Source: a virus (lineage: Duplodnaviria > Heunggongvirae > Uroviricota > Caudoviricetes). From it: a DNA stretch of 19,618 nt. The DNA lies in IMG/VR virus record IMGVR_UViG_2526164662_000035, positions 1 to 19,618 of that record; one strand, given 5' to 3'. The notes under the pieces were generated by a model that did no database searches, had not been told where the DNA came from, and saw only the letters and a list, made by a program, of their open reading frames with translations. Shown here one piece after another: positions 1,443 to 16,884 of this stretch. The stretch's first letter is position 1. Each line of letters opens with the position of its first letter. The position numbers and the translations under genes are program-made.

Positions 1443-1589
1443 GAACGTTTGGGGAAGAGTTAGATTAAGGGATGAACTAATTGATGATTAATGCTTTTAA
1501 TTACAAAAGTGTAACTGGAGGTGTATTATTATAAAATAAAAAACGAAGCGTGAGAAGGGGCAAAATAGACAATGGCAGCGCTTTTTATT

Positions 1590-1618
1590 TGTGCTTTGAG
1601 TGTTTAACTCAAAGCACA
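1590..1618. terminator. Perfect 12-bp stem hairpin (TGTGCTTTGAGT-gttta-ACTCAAAGCACA) in the intergenic region, possible bidirectional terminator
   Basis: Perfect inverted repeat read directly. T-rich on the upstream + side (gcgctttttattt) and moderately T-rich downstream. Lies between the tfa remnant and the 3' end of the minus-strand acyltransferase. Confidence 0.35.
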
Positions 1619-1871
1619 TGTTCTAAATTATTTACTTTCGTATTTAAGGGGGTTAGGTTATGACCATTTGGTCAAACAAAACGTTTTAAAAATTCTGCGA
1701 TGGGTTTTTCTATGTACATATGAATGACGCTGCCAGGCGCACAAACTTATTATAAAGTATATTCCAATATATAGGAATACATTGGAATAATCAATAAGTC
1801 CGAAAGACACAAACATATATGATACCCAAGCTGTAATCAAACCATGCGTCAAATATATACTATATGAAGCA

Positions 1872-2764
1872 TCACCGACGGAAAATAATAAGTTTAGCCG
1901 GTTTTATTTTACCTTCAAGGCTCAACGCTGCCCAGACACCATAAAAAGCGAAAAACCCCCATATCAAAGGACGATGCCATTCCCCCCCCATGTTTGTTGT
2001 AATATTAAAGTATTCACATAATAAGAATGTGGGAATAAACAAAGTTAATATTGTAAGCGCAATTGTTTTTTTTAACATAGCGCCCAGTAAGTATAATCGA
2101 TACATAAACATACCCATAGCAAATACGACCATTTCTGGTCTTGCCAGTGTTTTCATGAACGGAAGAATTTCGAATATGATGCTGTTATTTTGATAAGTTA
2201 AAATATTAGCTACTATGGATATAGTTAAAAATAAGATCTCTATATACTCTAACCTTGATAATTTGATAGCAATAAAAAATGCAAAAGAAGTATAAAACAA
2301 AAATTCAAGTTGTAATGTCCAACCTATACTTAGAATTGCATCGCGATGCCAGTGAGTGAATGTAATACTCTCAAGATACCATTGAAGACTGATTTTTGTT
2401 TCGGGCCACCAATAAGCAATAGGTGGAGTTGGGGAAGATATATAATGTTTTACTATGAAGGCTGATAGAACGCAAAGGGCGGTAATTAAAGCATATACCG
2501 GGATTATTCTTATTACTCTTCGCATAAAAAAGTTCCCTGCAGATATTTTGAATTCTCCTTCTGATTGAGAGCCACCATATGCTACGTAAGGTATAATAAA
2601 CCACTAATTATGAAAAATATAATAACGCCAAATCCTCCCAGAGATGCAAGGATTTCGATATTCCCAATGCCATATTGTCCAAGTTCGGCATGTGCCAAAA
2701 CCACCATAGCTGCAGCAATAAACCTTAGTGCTTGTATATTGAAAAGCGTTTTTCTTTTATTCAT
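1872..2764 (-). pseudogene. Acyltransferase family 3 (OafA/Oac-like, O-antigen acetyltransferase type) membrane protein, frameshifted near 2525-2585
   Basis: ORF 2582-2764 starts MNKRKTLFNIQALRFIAAAMVVLAHA...FFIISGLLYLT (typical acyltransferase-3 N-terminus). ORF 1872-2525 in another frame carries the signature RRVIRIIPVY and is strongly hydrophobic. My translation shows the second frame is open upstream to a stop at 2604-2606, so the break is a single frame shift around 2580-2590. The hydrophobic ORF 1658-1852 may be a further degraded 3' piece. The region is markedly AT-rich compared with the flanking tail genes. Confidence 0.7.
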
Positions 2765-2880
2765 TTATATACTGACCCAATTTTGTAATTATGAAACTTT
2801 AATTGATAAGGTAAGCATACTAAATAACTGATAAAAATAATAGATCAATTGAAGGGAACACAATCAGGGTTGTGCCATCT

Positions 2881-3176
2881 GCTAAACTCCAAATATTAAA
2901 AATCACTAATACCAGAGCACTAATGGGGCTCTCCATGATGTACTGGGGACAATTGGACAAAATGGAAAGGGAAATGATTGTTGAGCGAACGCAGGCGGGA
3001 TTAGCTGAGCACTCACTGGAGGTTGGATAGGTAGCCGTAGGCCAAACCTAACAGATGAACAATGGGCGCAGGCCGGGCGATTAATTGCATCAGGCGTTCC
3101 TCGCCAGAAGGTGGCGATCATCTATGATGTTGGTATATCGACACTGTATAAGAAGTTTCCGGTCGGAGATAAATGA
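2881..3176 (+). pseudogene. DNA invertase (Gin/Pin/Hin/Cin family serine recombinase), C-terminal remnant with a -1 frameshift and no catalytic N-terminal domain
   Basis: Frame 1 (2923-3030) reads MGLSMMYWGQLDKMEREMIVERTQAGLAEHSLEVG*. Frame 0 (3021-3176) reads GWIGSRRPNLTDEQWAQAGRLIASGVPRQKVAIIYDVGISTLYKKFPVGDK*, nearly the same as the Gin/Pin C-terminal HTH region (GRIGGRRPKLTPEQWAQAGRLIAAGTPRQKVAIIYDVGVSTLYKRFPAGDK, recalled from memory). The N-terminal ~120 aa with the catalytic serine is absent. Confidence 0.8.
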
Positions 3177-3236
3177 AACCGTAGCACGTCGTATGCAAGA
3201 AGATCGTGCTGCGGTTTATGCTTATCACTTAAAGAC

Positions 3237-4106
<870 letters not shown>

Positions 4107-4190
4107 CTAACCCTTTGAATTTACATAGCGCAAAAAGATACCTTTCCTCATAATGTGAGCTAATTTTATGTTTCGTTTGATGATCGGGTC

Positions 4191-4251
4191 GGTCTCGAAA
4201 ACCGGAGTAGGGGCAACTCTACTGGGGGTTCAAATCCCCCTCTCTCCGCCA
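4191..4251 (+). other. 3' fragment (61 nt) of tRNA-Ser(CGA), serU-like; att remnant, probably the prophage attR
   Basis: ggtctcgaaaaccggagtaggggcaactctactgggggttcaaatccccctctctccgcca: anticodon loop CUCGAAA, long variable arm, T-loop GTTCAAATC, acceptor 3' strand plus CCA. The 5' acceptor strand and D-arm are not present upstream, so this is not an intact tRNA gene. Confidence 0.8.
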
Positions 4252-4826
4252 CTTTATCAATGACTTATCTCCCGACTTCCCGCCTTGCTTTTCCTAAACA
4301 GAACAATCGTAGAATATTCTTGAAGGGTTAGATCGTCACTGTTTTCTGTTCGATACTGTGACATTCAGCACTTGATTCGCTATGGATCTGACAGGAAGGT
4401 TTCGAGCGAAAATCTGCAGTTATTCAGTCGTTTTCTTATCGGTCACCATTATTCTTTTAGACATTGATCCTACAAAGCTGCCGCAAAGTTGGTGGTGGGA
4501 ACTGAAGTTGCGTAGAGAAGGGGTCAATACCCGGAGGCACACATGGGCTGGCAAAAGTGTAGCGGTATTAGGCGCAGCTATTTAGCCTAGTTATGTTTTA
4601 TGAAAACTTGATATCATATAAGTGTCTTACTTATTGGCTGTAAATAAGTTTTTCCTAAGGAATTGTTTCTTGAGTATCATTTGTAACTGTAACGGAATTT
4701 ATAATCCTTTGCTTTATTGTTACGGTATTTTTTATCACACCCTATTTTTTATGTGGTTTTTTATACTGAAGTTTGGCAAAGTGAACTTTATATGCATATA
4801 CTTCATCCTGGTTTCAGTTAAATTGG

Positions 4827-5579
4827 GTGGATGATATGGCAACTACATGTTCAGTTATATTGATTTTGGAGTCCTTTGATATTTATTTCGGAAAAGAGAG
4901 TGTGTTTCTGGAGAGAGGTTCATCTGTACTTGTCGACTCTAGCTCTAGAGATTTTTTCCTGACATATCCTGAAAGAGTGATAGTGGCGGATTTTGGCGCT
5001 GAGTTTATTAGTCGCTATTTGAAAGCTAATAACTTAAGGGATATTTCTGATTGTAGGGAATATCCATCTTATTTAAAAATAAACTTTGCTGACTTCAGTT
5101 TAATTAAAGGATTAATTAGTTGGGCTAATCACTGTGCTGAATACATAGAAATTTTTGATGAGTCTATTGCTTTTACATGTCTCTCTGCATTTTCTTCTGA
5201 AAAACAATTTGGAGTATTTCTGTTTGGATGTTTGAAAAGCACAGGGGCTAAAGTTAAAACGATTATTCATACGGATTTATCTGCACCATGGCGTCTTAAG
5301 GATATATCATCAAGATTATATCTCAGCGAAAGTTTACTAAAGAGGAAATTGAAAGAAGAGGGGATATCATTCAGTAAGATCATACTTGATGAGAGGATGC
5401 AAATGGCTGAATATTTACTCAGCACTCGTTGTTATCCTATTAGTAAAGTAGCTAAGGTCTGTGGTTATGCCAGTGTCTCATACTTTACTTATGTATTTAG
5501 ACGTTATTTTGGTGTTTCTCCAAGTCAATACTCTCAGAGGAGTTCAGAAAGTAAAATTCTTACTCACCAGGGAATCTGA
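4827..5579 (+). CDS. AraC/XylS-family transcriptional regulator (AppY/GadX/Rns-like; low GC)
   Basis: C-terminal double-HTH signature: ...LSAPWRLKDISSRLYLSESLLKRKLKEEGISFSKIILDERMQMAEYLLSTRCYPISKVAKVCGYASVSYFTYVFRRYFGVSPSQYSQR. About 250 aa, like AppY-type regulators. The ATG at 4836 has better spacing to GGTGG and may be the true start. Confidence 0.85.
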   Translation: MDDMATTCSVILILESFDIYFGKESVFLERGSSVLVDSSSRDFFLTYPERVIVADFGAEFISRYLKANNLRDISDCREYPSYLKINFADFSLIKGLISWANHCAEYIEIFDESIAFTCLSAFSSEKQFGVFLFGCLKSTGAKVKTIIHTDLSAPWRLKDISSRLYLSESLLKRKLKEEGISFSKIILDERMQMAEYLLSTRCYPISKVAKVCGYASVSYFTYVFRRYFGVSPSQYSQRSSESKILTHQGI

Positions 5580-5584
5580 TCATT

Positions 5585-5850
5585 GTTCTTGCCCCCTTAT
5601 TTCCAGACAGGGGGTGTATCTTAAGTTAACGTTACCCGCTGACGTCGATATTCTCGCGGAGAGCGATAACCCAACGCACTGTGCGGATGGTTTTCATTGT
5701 AATGTTCGATCGCCACTGCAAGATTATGCAATGCCGTTCTTACATTCGGTTTCGGCATGAACGCGATGTAGTCTTCCTTCATCGTTTTCACGAATCTTTC
5801 TGCCATTCCATTACTCTGAGGACTGCTGATTACCCATGAGGAGTACAATT
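5585..5850 (-). mobile_element. Truncated IS2-like (IS3 family) element: 3' end of the orfB transposase plus the terminal inverted repeat
   Basis: Minus-strand ORF 5621-5848 translates to ...[63 protein letters not shown], the C-terminus of IS2 OrfB. Beyond its stop the minus strand reads ...CTGTCTGGAAATAAGGGGGCAAG, matching the IS2 terminal repeat (TGTCTGGAAATATAGGGGCAAATCCA, from memory). Only ~265 bp of the IS is present, abutting the AraC gene stop. Confidence 0.8.
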
Positions 5851-6068
5851 AAACGGGTTAATCAGTTTCTCCATTTGAAAGAAAAAAGACTTCTGTACTG
5901 TTTGATATCACCGCTATTTTCTTATTTTCTGTGCAGGTCGTAGTGGGACAAAACTGAGACACATAAGGCCTCACAATGGCTTGCAAGGCTTTACATGTTT
6001 TGATGTGGTGGGACGTGTGAGCGCAGTGTTGATGGGGTAATACTTTGAATTAGAAGCGGATTCTTATG

Positions 6069-6114
6069 ATTCGTAATGCGAAGGTCGTAGGTTCGACTCC
6101 TATTATCGGCACCA
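6069..6114 (+). other. 3' fragment (46 nt) of tRNA-Thr (thrW-like); att site
   Basis: attcgtaatgcgaaggtcgtaggttcgactcctattatcggcacca matches the 3' 46 nt of E. coli thrW including CCA. The 5' half of the tRNA is not present upstream. A 46-bp thrW core is what I recall for P22-type attachment sites. Confidence 0.85.
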
Positions 6115-6721
6115 TCAAGAAAATCAATAACTTAGCTTAACTTCTCTAAGAAATTGTATCTTCTGTTATCACTTACAAACGCCTATACGTTGTTATGGGC
6201 TTTGGTAGTGTAACACGTATGGGCGAGTAGTTCCCAGGCTCAACCTCGTAACAAGTTCCTTTGAAGCTGGAAGACGTGCCACCGTCTCTAAACCTTCTAC
6301 CAAAACTCTTAGCAAGATGTTCCACACCTGGCGCGGTGTCCAATGATGCTACACGTCGAGATGACGTCGCAGAGGATAAACAGGCTAAATGATGGGAAGA
6401 GTTTTAAGTGCAATAGTGGATTAAAGCCCACCTCTTCAAAACCTAACTTGATCGGGAAAGAATCAAGCTCTAGCACGGTTTCGTCCACCGGAGTACAACG
6501 GGTGCCTGATAAGAGAAGAACTGCTAAGACTTCATAGCTTTTGTGAAAAAGCCCTTTTTAGTGGATATGCCTACGGCGCTTATTTTTTGGTATAACCATC
6601 AAAGGCGCTTTATGGCTCCTATTGTCTTGAAAATGTATCTTTACTTGTATTGTGTTTTATGCGTAGTCTCCCTGTGTAGTATGTAACTTGTTAATTTTCA
6701 TATGAATACAGAGGCAACACG

Positions 6722-6874
6722 ATGAAAAACATTGCAGCTATAAAACGTAATAACCGCAAGATTCACGCTCGTAAGTTCCTGTCTACGCCAGAGGGAAAAG
6801 CCTGGCTAGAGCGTAAACAGCGAGAGAACGAAGAAAGAAAACTCCTTAGTGAGTTGAAATGGCTTAAGGATTGA
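6722..6874 (+). CDS. Small basic protein (50 aa), hypothetical
   Basis: ATG with AGAGG 9 nt upstream. Product MKNIAAIKRNNRKIHARKFLSTPEGKAWLERKQRENEERKLLSELKWLKD. Followed by a long hairpin at 6884-6927. Below the 60-aa cutoff of the supplied ORF track. Confidence 0.35.
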   Translation: MKNIAAIKRNNRKIHARKFLSTPEGKAWLERKQRENEERKLLSELKWLKD

Positions 6875-6883
6875 ATCACCAGT

Positions 6884-6927
6884 AGGCGCATAACACATCC
6901 AGCAATCAAAGATGTGTTTGTGCGCCT
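6884..6927 (+). terminator. Long imperfect hairpin (AGGCGCATAACACATC ... GATGTGTTTGTGCGCCT) after the small ORF; possible terminator or RNA structure
   Basis: Stem of ~16 bp with an 11-nt loop read directly. The T-run (agttttttag) is ~20 nt downstream, so it is not a canonical intrinsic terminator. Confidence 0.3.
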
Positions 6928-7424
6928 GATAGTGAAATTATTAAAGTTTTTTAGTTAATGTAGCCATTGCATGAACGATGATCGCTAGTGAATCGATTTT
7001 ATCTCGAGGGGTAAAATAGATGAGGTATATGATGGTAACAATTACAGCTAAAGTAATTGTGGTTCTGCAGGTTTTTAAAATGGATAAGATAAAGCGCATA
7101 GATACCCCCTATTGATTTAACAACAACAAGGTATCATTTATTTTTTATTGCATGCAATGTGCAAATTTTCACATATAATAGCTTACTATTCACTTTGCAT
7201 GGTGTCAACAAGATGATGTGTTGTTTTGTTTGATTTGTTCAAGATAATATTTCATTTTCTCATCTATATAACTTGTGTTTTAGATAATTTCACTAATTGT
7301 AAAAGTTACGTATTGCTTAATAGCTGCCTTTTTATCTGAAATCGGCGCAAACGTGATCAATGTTTAACGCGAAGATCAGCGGCGTCAGGTCCACGCAGCG
7401 ACAATTCTCAAATATCAGGAGGCA

Positions 7425-7982
7425 TTACGCTTCCTGCTCTTTCTTGATACGTTGCACCGTCTGTGTGCTGACACTGAAATCTTTTGCTACGCTCCGAATT
7501 GATCCACCATTCGCGAGAGCGGCAACAATTCCCGCTCGATCAATTGCTTTTCCATTACCACGTTTTGCTATACGTCCAGCGGCCTTAGCTGCGGCAATCC
7601 CCTCACGTTGCCGCTCAAGCATCATTTCACGTTCCATTTGTGCCACTGCTGCAAGCACTGTGAGCATCATATTCCCTGCGGGAGAGTTCTTCCCTGTCTT
7701 AAAGTCTTCTTTATGGAAATGCACAGACACGCCGCGCTCTGTTAATTGCTCAACCGTTGCCAGTAGGTCGGCTGTATTACGGCAAAGTCGATCAATGCTG
7801 TGAACATGCAAAACATCACCTTCACGCACATAGTTCATCATTGCCTCAAACTGTGGGCGCTGGGTATTCTTGCCTGACGCTTTATCTTCAAAGACTTTAT
7901 CAAGAGTTACTCCAGCTAATTGACGGTCTGTGTTTTGTTGGACAGTCGATACCCTAATGTATCCAATATTAGCCATTTTCAT
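7425..7982 (-). CDS. Small serine recombinase (resolvase/invertase family, 185 aa)
   Basis: N-terminal catalytic motif GYIRVSTVQQNTDRQ with the conserved Ser, a central ...DRLCRNTADLL... segment, and a C-terminal HTH (GGSIRSVAKDFSVSTQTVQRIKK). Length and layout match gamma-delta/Tn3 TnpR-type resolvases. GGAA lies upstream of the ATG. Confidence 0.9.
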   Translation of the reverse strand: MKMANIGYIRVSTVQQNTDRQLAGVTLDKVFEDKASGKNTQRPQFEAMMNYVREGDVLHVHSIDRLCRNTADLLATVEQLTERGVSVHFHKEDFKTGKNSPAGNMMLTVLAAVAQMEREMMLERQREGIAAAKAAGRIAKRGNGKAIDRAGIVAALANGGSIRSVAKDFSVSTQTVQRIKKEQEA

Positions 7983-7990
7983 TTTCCTTC

Positions 7991-8107
7991 TGTGTTGATT
8001 TGTGTGTAGTGATTATTGATCGTGTTGATTAGGTGTGTAAATGACTTTTTTCACTACGAAATTCGAAGGTTTTTAGTGTGGTGATTTAGCCTGCTTTATC
8101 ACTACAC
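7991..8107. promoter_or_regulatory. Cluster of GTGT(A/G/T)G(T)GATT motifs in both orientations just upstream of the serine recombinase; candidate res/operator site
   Basis: TGTGTTGATT (7991-8000), GTGTAGTGATT (8004-8014), GTGTTGATT (8022-8030), GTGTGGTGATT (8077-8087), and inverted ATCACTACAC (8098-8107) and TCACTAC (8051-8057). Multi-subsite res sites sit immediately upstream of resolvase genes in Tn3-family systems. Confidence 0.4.
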
Positions 8108-8504
8108 GTCTTGCATGAGAATCATGTAGTTATGCTTTGGTAAAATTAGCAAGCTATTAAATAGCGTGTTTATTTTGAAAAAATTAATTTTTTCAACACG
8201 TGAAAGGAACTTGTTCGACAAATAATAGATTGATTTTTAATCAACAATTTCTGATAGTGCTCTGTAAGCCACATTACACAAGGCGCAGCGAAAGTGATGT
8301 AAAAGTGAAGAAAGCTAACATTGCACTTTTAAGCTACTTTTCATTGAATTTTTAGTATGGAATTACATAGGGATTAATCATCAATTAATCTTGAATTTAA
8401 GCCTGTTTTAGATGTTTAATTTTTGATAGCAAGAAACACTTTTAGAAGATCATTGCACAGATGTTATGTGATAAATGGATGTAACGGTAGGTCACTGTGA
8501 ACTA

Positions 8505-8640
8505 CCCCCCACAGAATTCTGTTATCCTTAACTTTTAAAGAAATATGCACCCTAACAGAAAACTGTTACCCCAACCCTAACAGAATTATGTTAGACACCC
8601 CCACAGAAAACTGTTAGCCACCCCTACAGAATTTTGTTAC
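8505..8640 (+). repeat. Array of five phased iterons, each a palindrome CCC-(T)AACAG-N4-CTGTTA, spaced ~23 bp (first one 44 bp upstream)
   Basis: Copies centred on ACAGAATTCTGT (8511-8522), TAACAGAAAACTGTTA (8553-8568), TAACAGAATTATGTTA (8578-8593), CACAGAAAACTGTTA (8602-8616), TACAGAATTTTGTTA (8625-8639). ACAG start positions 8511, 8555, 8580, 8603, 8626. Each is preceded by a short C-run. An AT-rich tract follows at ~8641-8720. Confidence 0.8.
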
Positions 8641-9135
8641 CTATTAGATCAACTATCAAACTACAATTAAATTATCTTTTATAAATTCTTTTATCTTTAA
8701 AGAATAATTATAGGGATACCCGTTAGGGGAGTCTTCGACTATCCCTTAATCTATTGGCATTCGCCAGAACCTTGCACAAGTTAGAGTGTTAGTCGTTAGA
8801 CTGCTTGTCATAACACATAGTTTTTTGTTTGTTGATGTTAGTTAGTAGATCTATGTTCGCTAATGCCGCTCACAACGAATATGTAATCTACTATGTGCAA
8901 ATAGCCTACGGCTTGCGTAAGGCTAAATAGTCTTGCGCTGTGCGCAGAACGATAATTAACTAACTACCATCTAACGATCATCAATCTATTTAAGAGAAAA
9001 TCTATTGTGCAATACTCTGACGAGTGCAATAACCTTGTGTGCTACGCGTTAGCGATGTTAGCACATAGACACAGACAACAACCAACAACAAACAAAAAGA
9101 ATGGTTTTAGTAGTTGAAGGTTAAATAAGATTCTA

Positions 9136-9365
9136 CCGCTTAAATCAAGCCGTAGGCGAGCTAAACGTATATAAGGTAGGGAAACACTTAGCGGTAATAG
9201 ATTAGCTCGTTATAGAGTTTCTGAGAGCTTTGCAGGTATTTTATAAGATGTCTGAAATTAGATTTTATCTATCATCATCTTCCCATATACCTAACAAATA
9301 CAAAATAACCCCCTTAAATAAGCCTCTGGCGAGCTAAACAGCCATTACATAAGGGAATGTATTGT
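9136..9365 (+). repeat. Two copies of a ~45-bp imperfect direct repeat (CTTAAAT-AAGCC-N3-GGCGAGCTAAAC...ATAAGG..GGGAA) about 173 bp apart
   Basis: 9136-9187 cgcttaaatcaagccgtaggcgagctaaacgtatataaggtagggaaa versus 9309-9365 cccttaaataagcctctggcgagctaaacagccattacataagggaatg. A tandem GCGTTTTAGA x2 follows at ~9388-9407. Confidence 0.6.
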
Positions 9366-9500
9366 TTTTATCAAAACCTCGTTAGAACGCGTTTTAGAGC
9401 GTTTTAGACAATAATAAAGAATAGCACTACACATGAGAGCACGAATTGCTAAGAAATATCATAACTTACTGAAAATGATCAATATTTATATGGATAGGGG

Positions 9501-9529
9501 TTGACAAAAGCTTTTAGTCGTGGTAAAGT
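9501..9529 (+). promoter_or_regulatory. Sigma70-like promoter candidate (TTGACA-17 bp-TAAAGT) upstream of the early small-gene cluster
   Basis: TTGACA at 9501-9506, 17-nt spacer, TAAAGT at 9524-9529. The first gene of the cluster starts at 9650 with a strong AGGAGG ribosome-binding site. Confidence 0.3.
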
Positions 9530-9649
9530 AATATTAGGGACAGAAAACATTCTTATCCTCTAAGTAATTAAACCAATGCACCGCACTTTGAAGCCCAAGG
9601 CTTGCAAGGTGTCTTTTTCTTTTAACCAAATAGAATAGGAGGTTAATTA

Positions 9650-9850
9650 ATGAAGTATTACACTCCACAGGATGTAATCGAAGCCTGGAAACGTGGTGAG
9701 ATCAATCGTTTTAAAGTAAGGATGAACAGGAACACAGCGCGACGCTGTGGTTATCCAGAGCGTGAAAAATGCTTTGACGATGCACTAAAAATTATTGATG
9801 AATTAAGAAAAAATGAAAAAGGATCTGAAAAAGAATCTGAAACAGAGTAA
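9650..9850 (+). CDS. Hypothetical small protein (66 aa)
   Basis: Strong ribosome-binding site (aggaggttaattaATG). Charged product MKYYTPQDVIEAWKRGEINRFKVRMNRNTARRCGYPEREKCFDDALKIIDELRKNEKGSEKESETE. First gene after the 1.7-kb noncoding region. Confidence 0.5.
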   Translation: MKYYTPQDVIEAWKRGEINRFKVRMNRNTARRCGYPEREKCFDDALKIIDELRKNEKGSEKESETE

Positions 9851-9869
9851 AGAAGAGAAGGAGAAAACT

Positions 9870-10040
9870 ATGAGCGAAACTACAGAAAAGAAAAGACAAC
9901 CACGCACTTGCTTTCATATTCCTGATGAAGTATTTCAGGTGTTGTTTAAAGAAGCCAGAAGTAAACGTATCACTGTTACAGATTACATTCTTGATATGTT
10001 GAAAAGAGAGGCTGAAACACTCTCAAACAAAAGCAAGTGA
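9870..10040 (+). CDS. Putative ribbon-helix-helix (Arc/CopG-like) DNA-binding protein (56 aa)
   Basis: ATG at 9870 preceded by GGAGAA. Product MSETTEKKRQPRTCFHIPDEVFQVLFKEARSKRITVTDYILDMLKREAETLSNKSK shows a beta-strand/helix/helix pattern (RTCFHIP / DEVFQVLFKEA / VTDYILDMLKRE) typical of RHH regulators. The ORF-track start at 9813 overlaps the upstream gene and is less likely. Confidence 0.45.
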   Translation: MSETTEKKRQPRTCFHIPDEVFQVLFKEARSKRITVTDYILDMLKREAETLSNKSK

Positions 10041-10093
10041 TTTTTATCACCATAGTAGCGCCGTAGAGCGTGATTACATCAAGGAGATTTTTA

Positions 10094-10663
10094 ATGATTA
10101 ATGAAGAACAATTTGTAAAAGTTCCTATGTGGATTCTAAAAATAAGCCAAGTAAACGGGCATAAATTTACAGATAGTGCTAAAAACCTTTACTGCTATTT
10201 GAGAGGGTTTGATCGTGCATTTCCCTCTTACGCTAAGATAGGCGATGTTTTTGGCATAACACCAAGAGCAGCAGAAGAAAGGGTTAAGAAATTGCTCGAA
10301 ATGGGATTAATTATAAAAGATGCACGACCAGGAAGCTCTAACCTTTATCGAGTGCTTGATATTCCAAAAGGAGAATCATCACTACCTGATCCTTCTGAGA
10401 AAGAAGACGAATCTAATGAAATATTGAATGTTTCCGAAATCATCGTTGAAGAAGAAACACAGGAATCAGAGTTCCCTGAGCGGCCCGAAATTTTTACTTG
10501 GCTTCTTTCCCTTGATAAGAAGAAACCACCGCACGAAGAAACAGAAGATTTTGTAAAACGTGCATTAGATTCAAAGAATATCTATCTTGAGAAACAGGCT
10601 TTTCACGATCTGATAATATCTCTAAGAGAAAAAAGTGAAATATACGATTCAATACCATTCTAA
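10094..10663 (+). CDS. Winged-helix DNA-binding protein with an acidic C-terminal region; candidate replication initiator or iteron-binding protein
   Basis: ATG at 10094 with AAGGAG 7 nt upstream. N-terminal region MINEEQFVKVPMWILKISQVNGHKFTDSAKNLYCYLRGFDRAFPSYAKIGDVFGITPRAAEERVKKLLEMGLIIKD resembles the winged-helix N-terminal domain of phage/plasmid replication initiators. Function is inferred. Confidence 0.45.
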   Translation: MINEEQFVKVPMWILKISQVNGHKFTDSAKNLYCYLRGFDRAFPSYAKIGDVFGITPRAAEERVKKLLEMGLIIKDARPGSSNLYRVLDIPKGESSLPDPSEKEDESNEILNVSEIIVEEETQESEFPERPEIFTWLLSLDKKKPPHEETEDFVKRALDSKNIYLEKQAFHDLIISLREKSEIYDSIPF

Positions 10664-10672
10664 GGAGAATAA

Positions 10673-10942
10673 ATGACTTATAACATCACTATAGGAAACA
10701 AAACTATTGAAATAACTGAAAGCGGATACAACATTTTAAAAGCTATTTTGGACATAGAGTTCTCACCCCCGACAGTGGTTAGCTTTTGTAGTTTAGGCGG
10801 CTACAGCGCACAACATGTGAATCATTGGTTAAACCATTTTACATCGTTCGGTGTGCTGGATTATGAAGGGATTAACCACACTACATTTCGTCTTTTGAAA
10901 TTAAACAAAGATTTTGAATTGTTTATCACAAACAATCAATAA
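10673..10942 (+). CDS. Hypothetical protein (89 aa)
   Basis: ATG preceded by AGGAG (taaggagaataaATG). 10 nt after the upstream gene, consistent with an operon. Confidence 0.5.
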   Translation: MTYNITIGNKTIEITESGYNILKAILDIEFSPPTVVSFCSLGGYSAQHVNHWLNHFTSFGVLDYEGINHTTFRLLKLNKDFELFITNNQ

Positions 10943-11038
10943 CAACAGATCGGGCAATACATATGGCAAATGCATTTATGGCGATATTCATCGTAACAAT
11001 GGTATCAAGTTTTTATAATCCACATAAAAAGAGAGAAA

Positions 11039-11422
11039 ATGGGAAGAAAGAAAAAGAACAACTTAAAACGTATTGAAAAAAACAGTAACTTCAATTCAAC
11101 AAGACAACGTCCACCGACACACACCAATAACGAAATTCCAGGGGAAGAGATAATATTTATTCTTGAAACAGAATCCCCTGAAATAAGCGATGAAGAACAA
11201 GAAATAATCAAATCAATGCCAGGCGTTTACTTTCGCCCAAGAACAAGAAAACAAACAATAATTTCTGATGGCACTCTGAAACGTTGGCAGCTTTTAGGGT
11301 TTAGCTCCTATCATCATTTTTTGGGATTTAACGCTTTCAATAATTGTGTAGGTGGTGCATCGGAAGTCGATCTGATGGCTCATTTAGAAGCTACATTAGC
11401 TTCTAACAAACGCTCTAACTAA
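11039..11422 (+). CDS. Hypothetical protein (127 aa), basic N-terminus and acidic middle
   Basis: ORF with N-terminal MGRKKKNNLKRIEK and a central acidic stretch ETESPEISDEEQEI. No recognisable catalytic motif. Confidence 0.45.
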   Translation: MGRKKKNNLKRIEKNSNFNSTRQRPPTHTNNEIPGEEIIFILETESPEISDEEQEIIKSMPGVYFRPRTRKQTIISDGTLKRWQLLGFSSYHHFLGFNAFNNCVGGASEVDLMAHLEATLASNKRSN

Positions 11423-11437
11423 TAAAAGGATGGTCGT

Positions 11438-11683
11438 ATGTATAAGCGCCCAATGAAAATATTCGAAAAAGGAAAAATAATGATTGGCTATATTCAAGAA
11501 ACACAATTATTTCAGATGATCCTGTCTGATGCAAAAAACTATGCTGAGTTAATCCGACTGGCAAAAGAAACAGAAGACTACGAAGCATTAGAGCGTTATC
11601 GTGATGAAGTGCTGACGCTCAAGACACCTTTTAACATCGTATTGAATATGATTAATGATGCATTACAAGGAGAAGCCGCATAA
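11438..11683 (+). CDS. Hypothetical small protein (81 aa)
   Basis: ATG preceded by AAGGATGG. Stop overlaps the start of the next ORF (TAATGG), suggesting translational coupling. Confidence 0.45.
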   Translation: MYKRPMKIFEKGKIMIGYIQETQLFQMILSDAKNYAELIRLAKETEDYEALERYRDEVLTLKTPFNIVLNMINDALQGEAA

Positions 11684-11991
11684 TGGAAGAAGATATTAGC
11701 AATGCAATGGAACAACTTTTAGATCTGACTATCTCACTACAAACAAGAATAAATCAAGCCTATTCAGATTTATGCGATTACACGCTCTCTCAATGCGTTA
11801 TTAGCTTAATGAAGGTGAATGTAAGCCTTGACGATTTTATCTCTCTGGTGAGCGATTTAGAGCTAATTGAGGACGATGCCAAGATGTGCACTCAAACCAT
11901 CACAGACACCGCCAGCACGTTAAAGGCTGCAAGTGAAGAGATTCAGCAATTAGTAGATGATTTAGCAAAAAGTGCTATTCCCTCTAAATGA
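11683..11991 (+). CDS. Hypothetical acidic helical protein (102 aa)
   Basis: Start overlaps the upstream stop. Last gene before the second ORF-free region. Confidence 0.45.
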   Translation: MEEDISNAMEQLLDLTISLQTRINQAYSDLCDYTLSQCVISLMKVNVSLDDFISLVSDLELIEDDAKMCTQTITDTASTLKAASEEIQQLVDDLAKSAIPSK

Positions 11992-12734
11992 TAATGAAAA
12001 TCATTTGCATTTATATAATAAAAATGTTATATTTGTATTAAGGGTAGATAAAAAGGTTTTGACTGGTGTTAATCCTTCTACTGTCATAAATCCCTGCATA
12101 TGGAAGGTGATAGCCTCAAGGGTTGAGTGGCATTAACCTCTAACAAATATTACCTTCCATCTCTCAAGAAGTTTTAGAATAATCATAACTCCCTCTTTGA
12201 TTGTTGATTGTTTCTACGTTGTGTTGATGAATGTTGTTAGGCATTGTGCTTAATTTTGATAAAAGCGGGTAGGTGTTATCTCCTTGCCCTTCCCGCTCTT
12301 ATTTTTCATCTATGCTTATCCTAAAGCTCCTTATTTTGTCCGAAAACATTAAAGAGCCTTACACTGATAGTTATATTTTATAACTATTTACTAACATCAT
12401 TAAACTCTTATTTAATGACAGAAGTTAGTAACAGAATAATCTATTAAGTTGTTGTCAAAAAACTATCATCTGCATAGCGTTAGCCGCAAGCAGAGAGAGT
12501 TTAGCTAAGAATTGTGCAATAACCTTTGGAAATATTGATAGCAAAACGGGTTTTATAGACTGCAAATCTATAATCTTTGGTTGTAAAAACGCTTTTTCTG
12601 AAACGGTAGATTATTGTTGGTGTAGTTAATCCCTATTAAAATTTAATCTGTGAGTAGATTGGAATAGTGATTCCTTAAAATCTGACTGGTGCATCCACAC
12701 CATGAAAGATAGCGGTTAGCCACCGCACCCGAAT

Positions 12735-12790
12735 AGATATTCCTGATTGATTCCGCATGTTTTCCTAAGAGCATGTTTTCAGGAATATCT
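12735..12790. repeat. Perfect 12-bp inverted repeat AGATATTCCTGA ... TCAGGAATATCT around a 32-bp spacer containing GCATGTTTTC twice
   Basis: Read directly: 12735-12746 and 12779-12790 are exact reverse complements. The spacer holds the direct repeat GCATGTTTTC x2. Confidence 0.7.
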
Positions 12791-12897
12791 GTTCACCCTT
12801 TAAACCTATCTTTAAGCATGTTTAATAAGCATTCTTAGAGATACGTTTAAAACCTCCTCAAGGTTTTACTTATCGCTGTGTATTGCCCGACACGTTA

Positions 12898-12950
12898 ATA
12901 AATCCCCCTCGCTATTCTCAGATTGAACCTCTTATAGCCTGGGGGATTTA
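12898..12950. repeat. Perfect 10-bp inverted repeat TAAATCCCCC ... GGGGGATTTA around a 33-bp spacer, just upstream of the structural cluster
   Basis: 12898-12907 and 12941-12950 are exact reverse complements. Lies ~30 bp upstream of the ORF starting at 12983. Confidence 0.6.
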
Positions 12951-12982
12951 TTAAATTCCAACATAATGGAATCGTTATATAA

Positions 12983-13192
12983 ATGAAACAAGAAATTATC
13001 CTGAAATATGGCAATGAAAAGTTAACACTAACTGAAGATGTGTTGAATGCTACAGCCTACGCGCTTGGTATCACTCCCACAGAATTAAAGAAACAGTGTG
13101 AACGTCTTTATAAGGCTGAAAGCAATAAACCATCTCACCAAGATTTGATTAATGCTAAAGCTCAACAAATCAAACAATCTAAGGAAAAATAA
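12983..13192 (+). CDS. Hypothetical small protein (69 aa), first gene of the structural-type cluster
   Basis: ORF whose stop overlaps the next start (TAATGG). Confidence 0.45.
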   Translation: MKQEIILKYGNEKLTLTEDVLNATAYALGITPTELKKQCERLYKAESNKPSHQDLINAKAQQIKQSKEK

Positions 13193-13566
13193 TGGCTATT
13201 TTAAAATTAAGCGATGTTTTCCTACATCGTAAAAGCATCACTGACGTAGTGAGCTATGCAACCGACCCTTACGCGGCTGTAGAAAGCAAAAAATTTGCAG
13301 CACTTGCACAAGATGTAACGTGCGGCGACCTCATTGATTCATCCGGCGCTAAATATGTTAGCGGCGCTGATGTTCTTGTCGTTGTGTCTGACTTCGTAAC
13401 TGCTGATTCAAATAAAACAGTTAACGTGCTTCGTGCTAATGCCGGACTCGTTTGCATCAAAGCTGATGCCCTGAATGCCGAAGGCGCTGTAAAAGAAGCT
13501 GCTATTGCAGCTCTCGCTGCTAAAGGCTTCCAGCTTGAAGGCTTCCACTCTGTTTTCACATCTTAA
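13192..13566 (+). CDS. Possible head decoration or scaffold protein (124 aa), positioned like lambda gpD
   Basis: AAGGAA ribosome-binding site. Ala/Val/Gly-rich product immediately upstream of the gpE-like capsid gene. The gpD analogy rests on position and size only; sequence similarity is weak. Confidence 0.4.
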   Translation: MAILKLSDVFLHRKSITDVVSYATDPYAAVESKKFAALAQDVTCGDLIDSSGAKYVSGADVLVVVSDFVTADSNKTVNVLRANAGLVCIKADALNAEGAVKEAAIAALAAKGFQLEGFHSVFTS

Positions 13567-13582
13567 GAAGGAATAAATAATA

Positions 13583-14611
13583 ATGATTATCGGAAATGAA
13601 GTGGTTGATCTTGCTCCACTGTTCGAATTAAACGACTCACGCAATTACCTACTGTCTACTCTGGATTTTACTGATCCTGTGCCTGTAGAAAGTCACAAAG
13701 TGGCTGTTTCCCAGCTTATCGAGAGCAATGAATCTCTGTTCAACCATCCTACAAGCCGTTTTAGCTCTGAGCATAACGTTACTAAGCGTGAGAACGGGGA
13801 AGAATATCTTATTGAAATCCCGTACTTTTTAAGGGAAGACCTGATCAAACCGCAGGACGTGCAAGGCAAACGCAAAGCCGGAAGCTCTATTGAAGAAACA
13901 CTGCCGGATCTGTATGCGGAATATATCGCTAAACACAATGTTGCATTCCAGCGCACTAAAGAAAGCATCCTCGCGGCTTCTCTGTTCTCTGGCAAGACAC
14001 ACACCCCGAAAACTGACGATGTTCTGATCGATTACAGCACTCTGTTCGGTGTGTCTCCAATGACTGCAACCGTTGACGCATCCAGCACCAACACAATGAC
14101 CGTATTCAAGCAATTTGATCAGATGCATACGGATATGATTGCTAAGGCACAAAGCCAGGCTGCAACCATTGAGCGTGTTGTTGTGTTCTGTAAACCTGCG
14201 GCATTCAACGCTATTCGTTACAGCGTTGGCATGGTTAATGCGTTCCAGTATGCAAGCCCTGTAGACGATGCAAACGTGGTGTTTAATGTGCGTTCTCTGC
14301 TGCCTGGTGTAACTACTTTCACCATTCCAGGAACTAACATTGACCTGATCAAAGTGACTGATCCGCTGCTGCTGGCACATATGACCGCTGACGCTGTAGC
14401 TATTCCTAAACTTGCTAAGGGGGCAGGTGTTTACCAAGCTATTTTTGGTGCGCCTTCCAGTTCATTCGATCTGCTGTCTCAAGGCGCTAAAGAGTATTAC
14501 AGCTATGCTTTCGAATCGAATCGCGGCGACGCAGTGCACGTAGTGACCGAGAATAGCTCGCTTGTGGTTAACCACGGTGTTGGCTTCTCTGTGCAGATCA
14601 CAGTAGCGTAA
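13583..14611 (+). CDS. Putative major capsid protein, lambda gpE family (342 aa)
   Basis: GAAGGA ribosome-binding site. Length matches lambda gpE (341 aa). Local matches to gpE as I recall it: HKVAVSQLIE vs EKVYLSQIPG near the N-terminus, and C-terminal GFSVQITVA vs EFVSVQLA. Needs profile confirmation. Confidence 0.55.
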   Translation: MIIGNEVVDLAPLFELNDSRNYLLSTLDFTDPVPVESHKVAVSQLIESNESLFNHPTSRFSSEHNVTKRENGEEYLIEIPYFLREDLIKPQDVQGKRKAGSSIEETLPDLYAEYIAKHNVAFQRTKESILAASLFSGKTHTPKTDDVLIDYSTLFGVSPMTATVDASSTNTMTVFKQFDQMHTDMIAKAQSQAATIERVVVFCKPAAFNAIRYSVGMVNAFQYASPVDDANVVFNVRSLLPGVTTFTIPGTNIDLIKVTDPLLLAHMTADAVAIPKLAKGAGVYQAIFGAPSSSFDLLSQGAKEYYSYAFESNRGDAVHVVTENSSLVVNHGVGFSVQITVA

Positions 14612-14763
14612 AAAGTGTTAAAGACGTTCCCCTACGTCTGGAAATAATCGGGGCAATAAGGGTAAGGGATAATCATATAAGCAAAATATGCGCTGTCTCT
14701 TGCCCTTTTTGTTTTTCTACTGTCTACAAACCTAAATAAAAATATATATGTGAGAGAAAACCA

Positions 14764-14961
14764 ATGAACACAGAAAATTCACAGGCATTAATTCTTAAAT
14801 CTGTAAAAGAACTGGCAGCTATTAGCGATGACTCAATAATCAATGTCAGTGCCTTATGCAGAATGCTTTCAATTGATGCAAATAATGTGCGTCAGCGTGT
14901 CTTTCAGACTGGATGTAGCACTTTCGAAGCAATCCAATATTATTGCTCTAAAAAACAATAA
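14764..14961 (+). CDS. Hypothetical small protein (65 aa)
   Basis: ORF between the capsid-like gene and the 613-aa gene. Weak ribosome-binding site. Confidence 0.35.
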   Translation: MNTENSQALILKSVKELAAISDDSIINVSALCRMLSIDANNVRQRVFQTGCSTFEAIQYYCSKKQ

Positions 14962-14995
14962 CAAATAACAATCATAATACAGGGAAACAATTAAC

Positions 14996-16837
14996 ATGTT
15001 AGAGCTAAACGTGGCACGCCTCTCGAACGTTGTCACCTTCGAAGTTAACCGACCATCATTAGAGAAAGCAAAAGCAGAAGTAGAAAAACTTCGTAAACAA
15101 ATGGCGGCGGTGAAAGATATAGAATTGCGTGTTAAGACACATAAACAATCAACCGCTAAAGCAAAAAAAGACGTAGACGATATTGCTAAAAAGCAAGCAC
15201 AGGCTGATAAAGCTAATGCTAAAGCACAATTAGCCGCTCAACGTGTAGTTGCAAGAGAACAAAAAGCCCTGGCAGCACGCAAAGAGAAGGCAGAATTAAA
15301 GCTTTTAGACGTTGGAGCAAGCATTAGTGCAATGCACCGTCTTTCTGTAGCGGAACAATATAAAGCTATTGCACAGGCTAGAGAAATTGCCCTCCAATAT
15401 GAAAGAGGCGCTATTAGTCTGGCACGTATGAATAGCCAAATGAAACGCCTACAACAGCAACAACGTAAGATTAATGGCAATCGTAACGCTCACGCTAAAG
15501 CCTATGCACCTGTTAAGGGTAGCGGGAGTATTGGCGGCGGTGCTGCGGCTGTTATGCTGGGTGGCTTAGGCGCTGGCGCTACGTATATGGCTATGAGCAA
15601 AGCCTCTGAATTTGTTACTAACAGCTTTGCGAATGCTGAAACGCTGGGTGAATTGTATAGCCGTGCGAAGCTGGGCGGTGTAGACGTTAACCAGATGAAC
15701 AATATTGAGCAATGGGCCTACAAAAACGGCGTTGATTCAATGATGGGCGAACAAGGTCGTAGGAAGTATCTCGATCAGATGAAAGATGTACGGGAGAAGG
15801 CTACTAAATCTTATGATGAGGCTGAATATGTAGTTGATAAGAAAACTGGTAAAGGAGAATGGAAGGGCGGCGATAGCGGCATCAATACTTTAATGAATGA
15901 AGGATTCCTAACTAAAAAGGATCTAAAAGACTTTGCTGATAATCCGGCTGGTCTGGTTAGTAAAGCAGTTCAGGGAATGGTAGCTAAAGGCTATTCAGAT
16001 GCACAAATCGGTAGTCGTCTGGAAGATCTGGCTGATGATTTGATGCTCACCTCTAAATACTGGACACGCTCCGCTAAAGAAGTGGAACAATCAGCACGAG
16101 AACAACGAGAATCAGGGCGCTGGGTAACGCAGGCACAACAGGAAAGCGTTATTAAATTCCGTGAACTGAATAATGCACTTAGTGGGCTTTCTGACTCACA
16201 AGGGATCGCCTTTGTTGATGGCTTTATGAAATCTCTTGATCCGAAAGTGATTGAAGAGTTTAAAAAGAGCATGGTTGCAATGCTGCCAATGTTTACCAAA
16301 TTAGGCGAGGCTATCGGCGGATTGGTTAACGCCGTAATGAAAACAATCAACTGGCTGATGAAAAACGACGAGAAGACGGAAGCTATTCAGAAGAATTTAG
16401 GGGATGCACCGCCACTATCTAACGAAGGAATGAAGCAGAATCTTTCTAATCTCACTCCTGATCAATATAAAGGCGCTGGCACCGGAACAACTAAGCCAGA
16501 TAACAGCAATTCCCTGGTTAACACTATTAAAAGCTGGTTTATGCCAGAAGAAACGGTAGGTGGGGCGCAGGCTGTAAATCAATACAGTCTCGAAGGACAA
16601 AATATTGCAAATCTGAAACAGAGTGCAGCACAACAAGCTTTCAAGGCTCCTTCTTACACCTTTGCACCTGTTATTAACTTCAATCCAGAATTACAAGTAA
16701 ATGCAGAAGTGCCGCTAACTATCGAATCAGACACCGGACGATTGAGCGAATTTATCGACTTCAAATCAAAGGCATCTTCCGCTGAGTTTAGCAAGCTATT
16801 AACGCTGGGTGTTATGTCAGGCGGGTCAACCTATTAA
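14996..16837 (+). CDS. Large coiled-coil protein (613 aa) with a Gly/Ala-rich hydrophobic segment; candidate internal virion, scaffold or ejection-like protein
   Basis: N-terminal ~170 aa are Lys/Ala/Gln/Glu-rich heptad-like sequence (KAKAEVEKLRKQMAAVK...KKQAQADKANAKAQLAAQR...), followed by GSGSIGGGAAAVMLGGLGAGATYMAMS and a ~400-aa C-terminal region. No Walker A motif, so not a terminase or helicase. Confidence 0.55.
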   Translation: MLELNVARLSNVVTFEVNRPSLEKAKAEVEKLRKQMAAVKDIELRVKTHKQSTAKAKKDVDDIAKKQAQADKANAKAQLAAQRVVAREQKALAARKEKAELKLLDVGASISAMHRLSVAEQYKAIAQAREIALQYERGAISLARMNSQMKRLQQQQRKINGNRNAHAKAYAPVKGSGSIGGGAAAVMLGGLGAGATYMAMSKASEFVTNSFANAETLGELYSRAKLGGVDVNQMNNIEQWAYKNGVDSMMGEQGRRKYLDQMKDVREKATKSYDEAEYVVDKKTGKGEWKGGDSGINTLMNEGFLTKKDLKDFADNPAGLVSKAVQGMVAKGYSDAQIGSRLEDLADDLMLTSKYWTRSAKEVEQSAREQRESGRWVTQAQQESVIKFRELNNALSGLSDSQGIAFVDGFMKSLDPKVIEEFKKSMVAMLPMFTKLGEAIGGLVNAVMKTINWLMKNDEKTEAIQKNLGDAPPLSNEGMKQNLSNLTPDQYKGAGTGTTKPDNSNSLVNTIKSWFMPEETVGGAQAVNQYSLEGQNIANLKQSAAQQAFKAPSYTFAPVINFNPELQVNAEVPLTIESDTGRLSEFIDFKSKASSAEFSKLLTLGVMSGGSTY

Positions 16838-16884
16838 TCATCACTGTGGGGCGGTTTAGCCCCCTTAAATAAGGATTACAAATT

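Follow-up and report, generated by a model that had tools for sequence, protein, structure and literature searches.

A 19,618-nucleotide stretch of DNA from a virus of the class Caudoviricetes (IMG/VR record IMGVR_UViG_2526164662_000035, positions 1 to 19,618; hereafter the window) contains, at positions 9650-11991, a group of genes that had been described from the sequence as an operon of seven small genes led by ribbon-helix-helix (RHH) and winged-helix proteins (hereafter the original prediction). The interval is filled by seven co-oriented open reading frames, ORF1 to ORF7, and lies within a 12,987-bp island bounded by an exact 20-bp direct repeat at 6096-6115 and 19063-19082. In the island, the invertase is followed by a non-coding stretch of 1.65 kb, the operon of seven genes, a second non-coding stretch of 1 kb, the structural genes, and the integrase. 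Thirty further islands were gathered from Escherichia coli genomes, IMG/VR, and GTDB. The comparison of these islands suggests that the operon probably encodes the replication initiator (ORF3) of a phage satellite, and that phages of the helper type carry copies of its DNA-binding domains joined to a predicted nuclease.

The RefSeq annotation of CAU16175, a 99.9% identical strain, contains the same seven genes. Three start codons were revised on the basis of ribosome-binding site (RBS) position, RefSeq, and gene lengths in the 30 relatives: ORF2 extends over 9870-10040 and encodes 56 aa instead of 75, ORF3 extends over 10094-10663 (189 aa instead of 197), and ORF6 most likely over 11480-11683 (67 aa instead of 81). 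As originally predicted, all seven ORFs run one way, on the + strand, and each is preceded by a good, AGGAG-like RBS. The tight packing was also borne out, with intergenic gaps of 9-96 nt, but the overlapping stop and start codons attributed to these genes were found at a single junction, that of ORF6 and ORF7 (TAATG at 11681-11685). The operon is not led by the RHH protein, since the first gene is ORF1, which encodes a three-helix protein of 66 aa. The postulated sigma-70-type promoter was located upstream at 9501-9529 on the + strand (TTGACA-17 nt-TG-n-TAAAGT), where it was the top site of the regional scan, with 10/12 plus the TG extension. Promoter-like matches were not enriched in the region (12 found versus 19.5 expected from shuffled sequence); the site is considered credible because its -35 element, TTGACAAA, is invariant across the 30 loci, rather than because of its scan score. 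The ratios of nonsynonymous to synonymous substitution rates (dN/dS) calculated against the relatives were 0.085 for ORF1, approximately 0.2 for ORF2, 0.22 for ORF4, 0.18 for ORF5, 0.13 for ORF6, and 0.69 for ORF7, and all seven ORFs are therefore regarded as genuine genes. All of them except ORF7 are under purifying selection. The operon is regarded as real, with a gene order conserved over three subfamilies of the island and predicted transcription from the conserved sigma-70-type promoter, and the view of a promoter-led, co-directional early operon within a satellite-like island was upheld.

ORF3 (10094-10663, + strand) encodes a protein of 189 aa, in which an N-terminal domain of the type designated N1 (residues 1-104; a winged helix and putative iteron binder), an acidic linker (residues 89-135, of which 16 are acidic and 3 basic), and a C-terminal domain of 80 residues ending in ...EIYDSIPF were distinguished. 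This is the winged-helix protein with an acidic tail that the original prediction had recognized. Its first 120 residues matched replication initiators in PHROGs (phrog_270, E 1.2e-8; phrog_678, 1.2e-5; phrog_8540, 2e-5; phrog_391, 1.5e-4), including three families annotated as "O-like" replication-initiation proteins; no match to Pfam RepA_N was found at E up to 0.1, and none to Phage_rep_O. In the 30 islands, five unrelated-looking types of ORF3 N-domain were combined with two main types of C-domain plus one variant. ORF3 is accordingly described as a two-module protein, the N-terminal module being a predicted lambda-O-like winged helix that occurs in five exchangeable types. The C-terminal end was YDSIPF, YDSLPF, DFDIPF, or DFDLPF in all 30 ORF3 proteins. 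The tail of the E. coli single-stranded DNA-binding protein (SSB), ...DFDDDIPF, serves to recruit numerous proteins of replication and repair, and the SSB of the phage Mt1B1_P17 (QNJ49289, L038:5862-6794) contains a host-type tail, PPMDFDDDIPF, followed by 17 more residues. No helicase, primase, polymerase, or helicase-loader family was found among the 18 island proteins in searches of Pfam and PHROGs. Because the island encodes no helicase, primase, or polymerase, ORF3 would be expected to recruit an outside replisome.

A candidate target of the ORF3 N-domain was found in the non-coding region upstream of the operon. Five palindromic type-A iterons (CCCnnACAGAAnnnTGTTA) are located at 8506-8641 on the + strand, with start-to-start spacings of 44, 25, 23, and 23 bp, approximately 0.9 kb upstream of the promoter and about 1.1-1.5 kb upstream of ORF3. 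The type-A pattern gave six matches (five sites, one of which was matched on both strands) versus 0.4 expected, and none of 200 shuffled sequences reached six. The array is adjoined by a single relic type-B iteron at 8487-8505 and by an AT-rich stretch at 8641-8720 (80.0% A+T versus 65% in the whole non-coding region), which is a candidate DNA-unwinding element.

The iteron motifs were defined on five loci and tested on the other 25. Islands with an N1-type ORF3 contained the iteron ACAGAAnnnTGT in 5-6 copies (8/8 loci), those with N0 contained GGTCAYnGTGA in 2-5 copies (9/9), those with N2 contained GTAACGA in 4-7 copies (6/6), those with N3 contained AGGAAn5TTCC in 2-4 copies (5/5), and those with N4 contained TATCAAnnnTGATA in 2-3 copies (2/2). 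Type A, present in 5-6 copies in the eight N1 islands, occurred in 0-1 copies in the other islands. The cognate iteron was the most frequent motif in 29 of the 30 loci, including 24 of the 25 that were not used for definition. In addition, the pairing of N-type and iteron persisted over 2-5 combinations of promoter version, ORF1 type, ORF2 type, and C-domain within an N-type. It is considered to be more than linkage because the DNA between the iterons and ORF3 has been reshuffled while the pairing holds. The covariation suggests that the N-domain of ORF3 is specific for its own iterons. In one locus, L005 (8640-9152; the leuX island of E. coli KK19-02), four iteron types (A, B, D, and E) were found together with a single ORF3 of the N1 type.

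Palindromic sites of this kind would also suit a dimeric winged-helix transcription factor. If ORF3 were such a protein, the iterons would be operators, and the operon would be a regulatory or immunity module and not a replicon. Some ORF3 variants are indeed named "transcriptional regulator" or "LexA family" by RefSeq, and both the lack of a helicase or primase gene in the island and the joint presence of several iteron types in L005 would agree with this explanation. However, the best profile matches of ORF3 are all to replication-initiator families, no such iteron lies near any promoter in the window, and the distance of the arrays from the promoter, together with the AT-rich stretch that they abut, is origin-like. 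Furthermore, the shuffling of modules and the presence of a phage nuclease with the same domains match the RepA protein of PLE (an element of Vibrio cholerae that resembles phage-inducible chromosomal islands) and the nuclease Odn of its phage ICP1 (PMC8263062). The transcription factor explanation is consequently considered rather improbable, and a replication initiator that acts at its own iterons is preferred.

The phage nuclease genes were found by comparison of the island with phage sequences. A segment comprising the RBS and the N-domain of ORF3 (10053-10407, + strand) is shared with Phapecoctavirus Mt1B1_P17 at 99.2% DNA identity and has sharp borders. In this phage, it belongs to a gene encoding a 328-aa protein (QNJ49226) in which an N1 domain, with 99% protein identity, precedes an N3 domain (88%) and a C-terminal nuclease-like domain. 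The phage BI-EHEC carries the same N1, N3, and nuclease gene. In the Justusliebigvirus muut (muut_154), the N4 and N3 domains precede the nuclease, and in inny (inny_184) the N2 and N3 domains do so; in these two phages, the chimeric gene also has an upstream RHH gene that is 100% protein-identical to the ORF2 of subfamily II. The phage copies share 88-99% protein identity with the N1, N2, N3, and N4 domains of the satellites, and at the nucleotide level, the genes of these four Stephanstirmvirinae phages are mosaics of satellite DNA with 95-100% identity (95-99% in the ORF3 domains). The nuclease domain matched the endonuclease family phrog_681 (2.4e-18) and, by tblastn, annotated GIY-YIG and homing endonucleases; the Pfam matches were weak (MUG113, 21.2 bits with a cut-off of 22.3, 4e-4; T5orf172, E 0.037). 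Near-identical ORF3 domains accordingly sit on a predicted GIY-YIG/T5orf172-like nuclease gene in phages of the helper type, and the most economical reading of this similarity is that satellite DNA was captured by the phages. The signal of conflict points in a direction opposite to that originally proposed, namely to the capture of ORF2 and of the DNA-binding domains of ORF3 by helper-type phages.

By analogy, the phage chimeras probably serve to cut the island. They could also be ordinary homing endonucleases or phage regulators from which the islands borrowed their domains, without any anti-satellite function, given that T5-like, PVP-SE1-like, and jumbo phages commonly have this nuclease domain in genes resembling those of homing endonucleases and that the chimeric gene is the first of a block of early genes. 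However, a search of 50,697 phage records detected the full architecture in no more than four distinct phages. Among the matches listed from 83 related phage records that had the flanks only, the gene of approximately 1 kb is missing between flanks conserved at 93-96%. The mosaic of muut and inny spans ORF2 and the ORF2-ORF3 spacer in the satellite gene order. No cognate iteron array, of either type A or type E, was found in the 150 kb of the Mt1B1_P17 genome that were examined. The domains and the iterons both belong natively to the islands, which 13% of E. coli genomes contain (relatives of the segment 8400-12200 were found in 715 of 5,426 complete genomes). A homing or regulatory origin of the chimeras therefore appears unlikely, and their capture from the satellites is favored.

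The remaining island genes were compared with those of phages and of related islands. The left attachment (att) core (6096-6115) lies inside a partial 3' copy of tRNA-Thr (thrW) at 6069-6111, and the right core is located at 19063-19082. From position 6069 to its end, the window is 99.9% identical to CAU16175, in which the island adjoins thrW directly. A Hin/Gin-type serine DNA invertase/resolvase is encoded on the - strand at 7425-7982 (Pfam Resolvase, 1e-38; phrog_125 DNA invertase, 2e-62); its place adjacent to the long non-coding stretch is conserved in every subfamily, and the gene is present in the loci L006 and L040. The structural module (12983-17562, + strand) encodes, in order, a protein of 69 aa, a decoration-like protein of 124 aa, a lambda-E-type major capsid protein (13583-14611; Pfam Phage_cap_E, 6e-18), a protein of 65 aa, a tape-measure-like protein of 613 aa (14996-16837; phrog_16051 TMP, 6e-31), and a Dit-like protein (16885-17562; Dit_like, 2e-27). 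A tyrosine integrase is encoded at the right end on the - strand (17643-19007; Pfam Phage_integrase, 4e-17). Among the 50,697 phage records, the best matches of the capsid and tape-measure-like proteins were to Stephanstirmvirinae (phAPEC8, phi92, and phiWec188) and Pakpunavirus, with 25-30% identity. Searches of Pfam and PHROGs revealed no portal, protease, terminase, tube, sheath, or lysis genes in the island. Such a partial set of head plus tail parts is unusual for a satellite.

In searches of genomes and proteins, the island family was found in Escherichia only. Its three subfamilies have a common architecture and occupy thrW, leuX, and a tRNA-Gly. A minimal relative, L006 (2395-10473; E. 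coli WWCOL-236), is inserted in the thiamine pyrophosphate-riboswitch leader of thiM, which is duplicated. It retains ORF1-3, the non-coding region, and the invertase, together with genes for an integrase, a GmrSD-HNH (DUF262) product, and an XRE regulator, and contains neither ORF4-7 nor structural genes. Subfamily III is represented by L040 (6235-16586; strain 10205 of enterohemorrhagic E. coli, tRNA-Gly), in which ORF1 is a pseudogene with an internal TGA, ORF3 is of the N3 type, and a different small gene, RHH-like by eye, is in the position of ORF2; this locus also contains extra genes encoding a winged-helix-like protein of 68 aa and a protein of 69 aa. Positions 1-6068 of the window correspond to a separate integrated element in tandem, upstream of the island, where genes for a tail fiber and its assembly were found together with those for an AraC regulator, an acyltransferase, and a GIY-YIG protein similar to LEM-3. 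The element is missing from CAU16175, where proA and tRNA-Thr are in place.

The presence of few structural genes, with those for a portal, a terminase, a tail tube, and lysis all lacking, and the insertion sequences or deletions observed in some copies would fit a decayed prophage remnant, in which the seven ORFs would be leftover early genes with no present role. Yet the compact architecture of 12-13 kb recurs at thrW, leuX, tRNA-Gly, and thiM, with intact reading frames under purifying selection. Exchange with virulent phages was recent, at up to 100% nucleotide identity, and the shuffling of modules implies active circulation. A remnant is therefore regarded as very improbable. The evidence for a satellite is indirect and consists of the integrase with its att sites, the partial set of Stephanstirmvirinae-like structural genes, and the recent exchange of DNA with those phages.

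The other six proteins of the operon were also searched for relatives. ORF1 (9650-9850, + strand), a core gene of the family, encodes a basic protein whose three-helix fold was modelled with AlphaFold2 at a predicted local distance difference test (pLDDT) score of 83. An exhaustive HMMER search of 1.84 billion representative proteins returned only 11 relatives of ORF1, none of them named, and fold searches with the model gave non-specific matches, none of which was informative. For ORF2 (9870-10040, + strand; 56 aa), a weak match to the Arc-like repressor family phrog_582 (E 0.0018) and a strand-helix-helix pattern, PRTCFHIPDEVFQVLF...VTDYILDML, which fits by eye, suggest that it is the RHH protein noted originally and a probable RHH-like DNA-binding regulator. 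It had no Pfam RHH match, and a PDB profile search gave only an RHH-type antitoxin at E 0.49. The alternative ORF2 type of subfamily II is 44% identical to that of the window. ORF4 (10673-10942, + strand; 89 aa) is predicted to be a stand-alone winged helix akin to the N-domain of ORF3, with which it was aligned by hhalign in a profile-profile comparison (probability 86%, E 5e-6). The statement that only two of the proteins have recognizable folds consequently failed for ORF4. Its homologs in subfamilies II and III are 24% and 45% identical, respectively, and it is a probable regulator acting at a conserved site. As judged from these matches, the recognizable part of the operon, ORF2-4, is a predicted replication and regulation module; families of this routine kind account for three of the seven genes only.

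ORF5 (11039-11422, + strand; 127 aa) has an N-terminal half of low confidence, at first basic and then acidic, and a small helical C-terminal half. Its AlphaFold2 model (pLDDT 55) was too poor for use. Homologs 33-45% identical to ORF5 were found in subfamilies II and III, and no family or PDB match was obtained (Pfam, PHROGs, PADLOC, and PDB sequences). Single-protein searches with ORF4 and ORF5 retrieved relatives only in E. coli, none with Pfam domains. ORF6 (11480-11683, + strand) encodes a helical protein; the 67-aa form is conserved in the relatives, and an 81-aa version is possible from 11438. It had no family match in Pfam or PHROGs, and nothing supported the names "ABC transporter ATPase" (given to ORF6) and "transporter" that appear in databases. 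ORF7 (11683-11991, + strand) encodes an acidic helical protein of 102 aa, for which the median dN/dS of 0.69 rose to approximately 1.1 against the locus L003. Most changes cluster within residues 55-82 and 1-17, some islands having an alternative set of 17 N-terminal residues, and the homolog in subfamily III is 29% identical. Relatives of ORF6 and ORF7 outside the island family were not detected, and searches of PDB sequences with ORF2, ORF3, ORF4, ORF5, and ORF7 gave nothing significant. The original remark that no motif could be recognized holds for ORF5, ORF6 (in either its 81-aa or its 67-aa form), and ORF7, which are without a family match.

The original prediction assigned to early clusters of this kind helper-interference, anti-defense, or derepression functions, and such effectors, encoded by ORF1, ORF5, ORF6, and ORF7, could be the main purpose of the operon. 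These four genes have no homologs outside the family, ORF7 evolves at a dN/dS of 0.7-1.1 yet is intact in every locus, and ORF4-7 are absent from L006, which has no structural genes. However, nothing was found that shows any of these functions. PADLOC gave no defense-family match, and a tblastn search with ORF1, ORF2, and ORF4-9 against the 50,697 phage records detected nothing except the copies of ORF2 carried by muut and inny, so that the four proteins have no phage homolog. In addition, ORF1, ORF5, and ORF6 are under ordinary purifying selection, and the three assignable genes encode predicted DNA-binding proteins of replication and regulation. Effectors as the main purpose of the operon are therefore a doubtful possibility. 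For up to four genes, this role is compatible with a satellite operon built around ORF3, and the fast evolution of ORF7 leaves room for a role in interference.

The DNA upstream of the operon contains further conserved features. Between the promoter and ORF1, a conserved hairpin of 13 bp with one bulge, followed by a U-tract (CUUUUUCUUUU), was predicted at 9583-9623 on the + strand by minimum-free-energy folding. Its stem is invariant in the 30 loci and its loops are variable; in L007, a one-base deletion on each arm (A and T) keeps the stem paired. The hairpin looks like a terminator-like attenuator. Immediately upstream of the promoter, a block at 9320-9500 contains 2-4 copies of the 10-bp repeat CGTTTTAGAG and shows 81-96% column conservation over 31 loci, which is higher than that of the coding DNA. 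An RNA reading of this ultra-conserved region (9300-9540) was considered and dropped, as the covariation term of RNAalifold was 0. Because RNA covariation is absent, the block is probably protein-binding DNA, for which ORF4 and ORF2 are candidate binders. ORF4 does not vary with the iteron type. Binding sites of ORF2 and ORF4 were not located, and the versions of the promoter spacer do not track the ORF2 type. The block also includes a hix-like half-site, TTATCAAAACC, at 9368-9387. Inversion of part of the non-coding region by the invertase was considered as well; the half-site is a lone one, and a search for its partner found none.

Several other repeats were observed in the non-coding regions. 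The region 8757-9160 contains long imperfect inverted repeats that cross one another (8757-8779/9005-9027, 8822-8843/9077-9098, and 8904-8934/9127-9157); it is only moderately conserved. Neither this region nor the long non-coding regions in general had an Rfam match. A 32-nt direct repeat is located at 9135-9166 and 9308-9339. The second non-coding stretch of 1 kb, at 12000-12980, separates ORF7 from the structural genes, and just upstream of ORF8 it contains an inverted repeat (12895-12954) with 21-nt arms, 90% complementary, and an 18-nt gap. This repeat could be a control site of the late operon or a packaging site.

Taken as a whole, the results are probably best explained if the seven genes are the early operon of an integrative island that behaves as a satellite of virulent myophages of the phi92/phAPEC8 type, with ORF3 as its initiator and with the phage chimeras as Odn-like nucleases. 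The leader hairpin would keep the operon low until infection by such a phage relieves termination, and the operon would then be switched on, possibly via read-through of the hairpin. Dimers of ORF3 would fill the iterons as an origin-specific initiator, the adjacent AT-rich DNA would open, and the acidic linker and SSB-like tail of ORF3 would bring in replisome proteins of the host or the helper. ORF2 and ORF4 may act as DNA-binding regulators. ORF4-7 probably serve late-gene control or helper exploitation, because they are absent from L006, the one island examined that lacks structural genes; ORF5-7 would act on the late genes or on the helper, and ORF7 may sit at the interface of the conflict. 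On the side of the phages, the chimeras would use the DNA-binding specificity of the satellite to find and cut the island origin. Satellites would escape by swapping the N-domain and the iterons together, and phages would respond by stacking two captured satellite domains, sometimes plus the RHH gene, onto a GIY-YIG nuclease. For the wider proposal, that the islands are an undescribed family of E. coli satellites engaged in a second, independently evolved arms race over an origin-directed nuclease, with an initiator that mimics the SSB tail to recruit the replisome, we consider the arguments evenly balanced. No description of the island or of a satellite of Stephanstirmvirinae was found in the searchable literature; a paper outside it is possible.

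A number of observations weigh against this interpretation. The match of ORF3 of the window to HTH_36 in Pfam (19.8 bits) is below the gathering cut-off of 25 bits, the variants of L003 and L006 reaching 26.5 and 32 bits, respectively. The resemblance to the SSB tail concerns a short motif of six residues. The iterons lie outside ORF3, unlike those of lambda, and palindromes so spaced could equally be operators of a transcription factor. The 30 loci are related, so that the counts of covariation are not independent events, and the extra non-cognate arrays of L005 are not explained by a model of one initiator and one origin. For ORF1, ORF5, ORF6, and ORF7, searches of Pfam, PHROGs, PADLOC, and PDB sequences yielded no family. 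The similarity of the capsid protein to those of the presumed helpers amounts to approximately 25% identity. Finally, excision, replication, packaging, and helper dependence are all deduced from sequence analysis alone.

If the interpretation is true, satellites of the large virulent myophages Phapecoctavirus and Justusliebigvirus reside in approximately one of every eight complete E. coli genomes. Such helpers are widely isolated for phage therapy, and the island could lower the yield of the phages or spread by using them. The system of ORF3 and iterons would be a simple replicon with five natural specificities, and the four unassigned proteins, in particular the fast-evolving ORF7, could be considered as possible manipulators of the helper. 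The chimeric phage genes would be just the second example known of a phage that turned the specificity of a satellite initiator into an anti-satellite nuclease. The solution reached by ICP1 and PLE would then be a general outcome of the conflict between phages and satellites, for which E. coli would offer a tractable model.

Comparison with known satellites demonstrated both common and distinct features. Like classical Gram-negative PICIs (phage-inducible chromosomal islands) and PICIs that form capsids (cfPICIs), the element is a small, integrase-bearing island of Enterobacteria with morphogenesis genes derived from phages, and like cfPICIs, it has its own major capsid protein. The markers sought among the 18 island proteins in Pfam and PHROGs were alpA together with pri-rep, a complete set of capsid genes that includes portal, protease, and the small terminase TerS, and Sid, Psu, Delta, and alpha of P4; none of them was found. 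Judged by these marker genes, the island is not a PICI, a cfPICI, or a P4-like element. In contrast to PICIs and cfPICIs, it lacks alpA and pri-rep as well as genes for a portal, a protease, a head-tail connector, and a small terminase; it contains tape-measure-like and Dit-like genes, and its presumed helpers are virulent myophages of 150 kb, not temperate phages. The early operon of P4 is controlled by termination in the leader (CI RNA). The island resembles P4 in that a promoter of constitutive appearance precedes a leader with a termination signal, which in the hairpin described here is a prediction. In sequence the two differ, as neither P4-like sequences nor P4-like genes (Sid, Psu, Delta, or alpha) were found.

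The ORF3 system also resembles the O protein and origin of lambda in its winged helix, its tandem palindromic iterons approximately 20-25 bp apart, and the AT-rich DNA next to them, as well as in a C-terminal part thought to recruit the replication machinery. Unlike in lambda, where the origin is inside the O gene, the iterons are outside the initiator gene, there is no P-like helicase-loader gene, and the C-domain of ORF3 is unrelated to that of O and ends in the SSB-tail-like motif.

The closest parallel is provided by PLE and ICP1. RepA of PLE has an N-terminal DNA-binding domain that can be exchanged and that covaries with the semi-palindromic iterons of a non-coding region, and its C-terminal part is more conserved; Odn (Gp88) of ICP1 is an accessory chimera of a satellite-like DNA-binding domain and a T5orf172/GIY-YIG nuclease, like the homing-endonuclease genes of ICP1 (PMC8263062). 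The logic of counter-adaptation between RepA and Odn was demonstrated experimentally for this pair (Barth et al., 2021; PMC8263062). The two systems differ in several respects. The predicted DNA-binding fold of ORF3 is an HTH_36/lambda-O-like winged helix and not RepA_N, the system involves Escherichia as the host and Stephanstirmvirinae as the presumed helpers, and the island encodes its own capsid, decoration-like, tape-measure-like, and Dit-like proteins. The phage copies are 88-99% protein-identical to the satellite domains, compared with 42% identity for Odn; in every phage gene, two satellite domains are arranged in tandem, and two phages also carry the satellite RHH gene. In both systems, a satellite of a virulent myophage has an initiator with a swappable N-domain that tracks the iterons and a more conserved C-terminal part, and it is faced by an accessory chimeric nuclease borne by the helper and similar to homing-endonuclease genes of the phage itself, although in the island described here these features are recognized from sequence alone.

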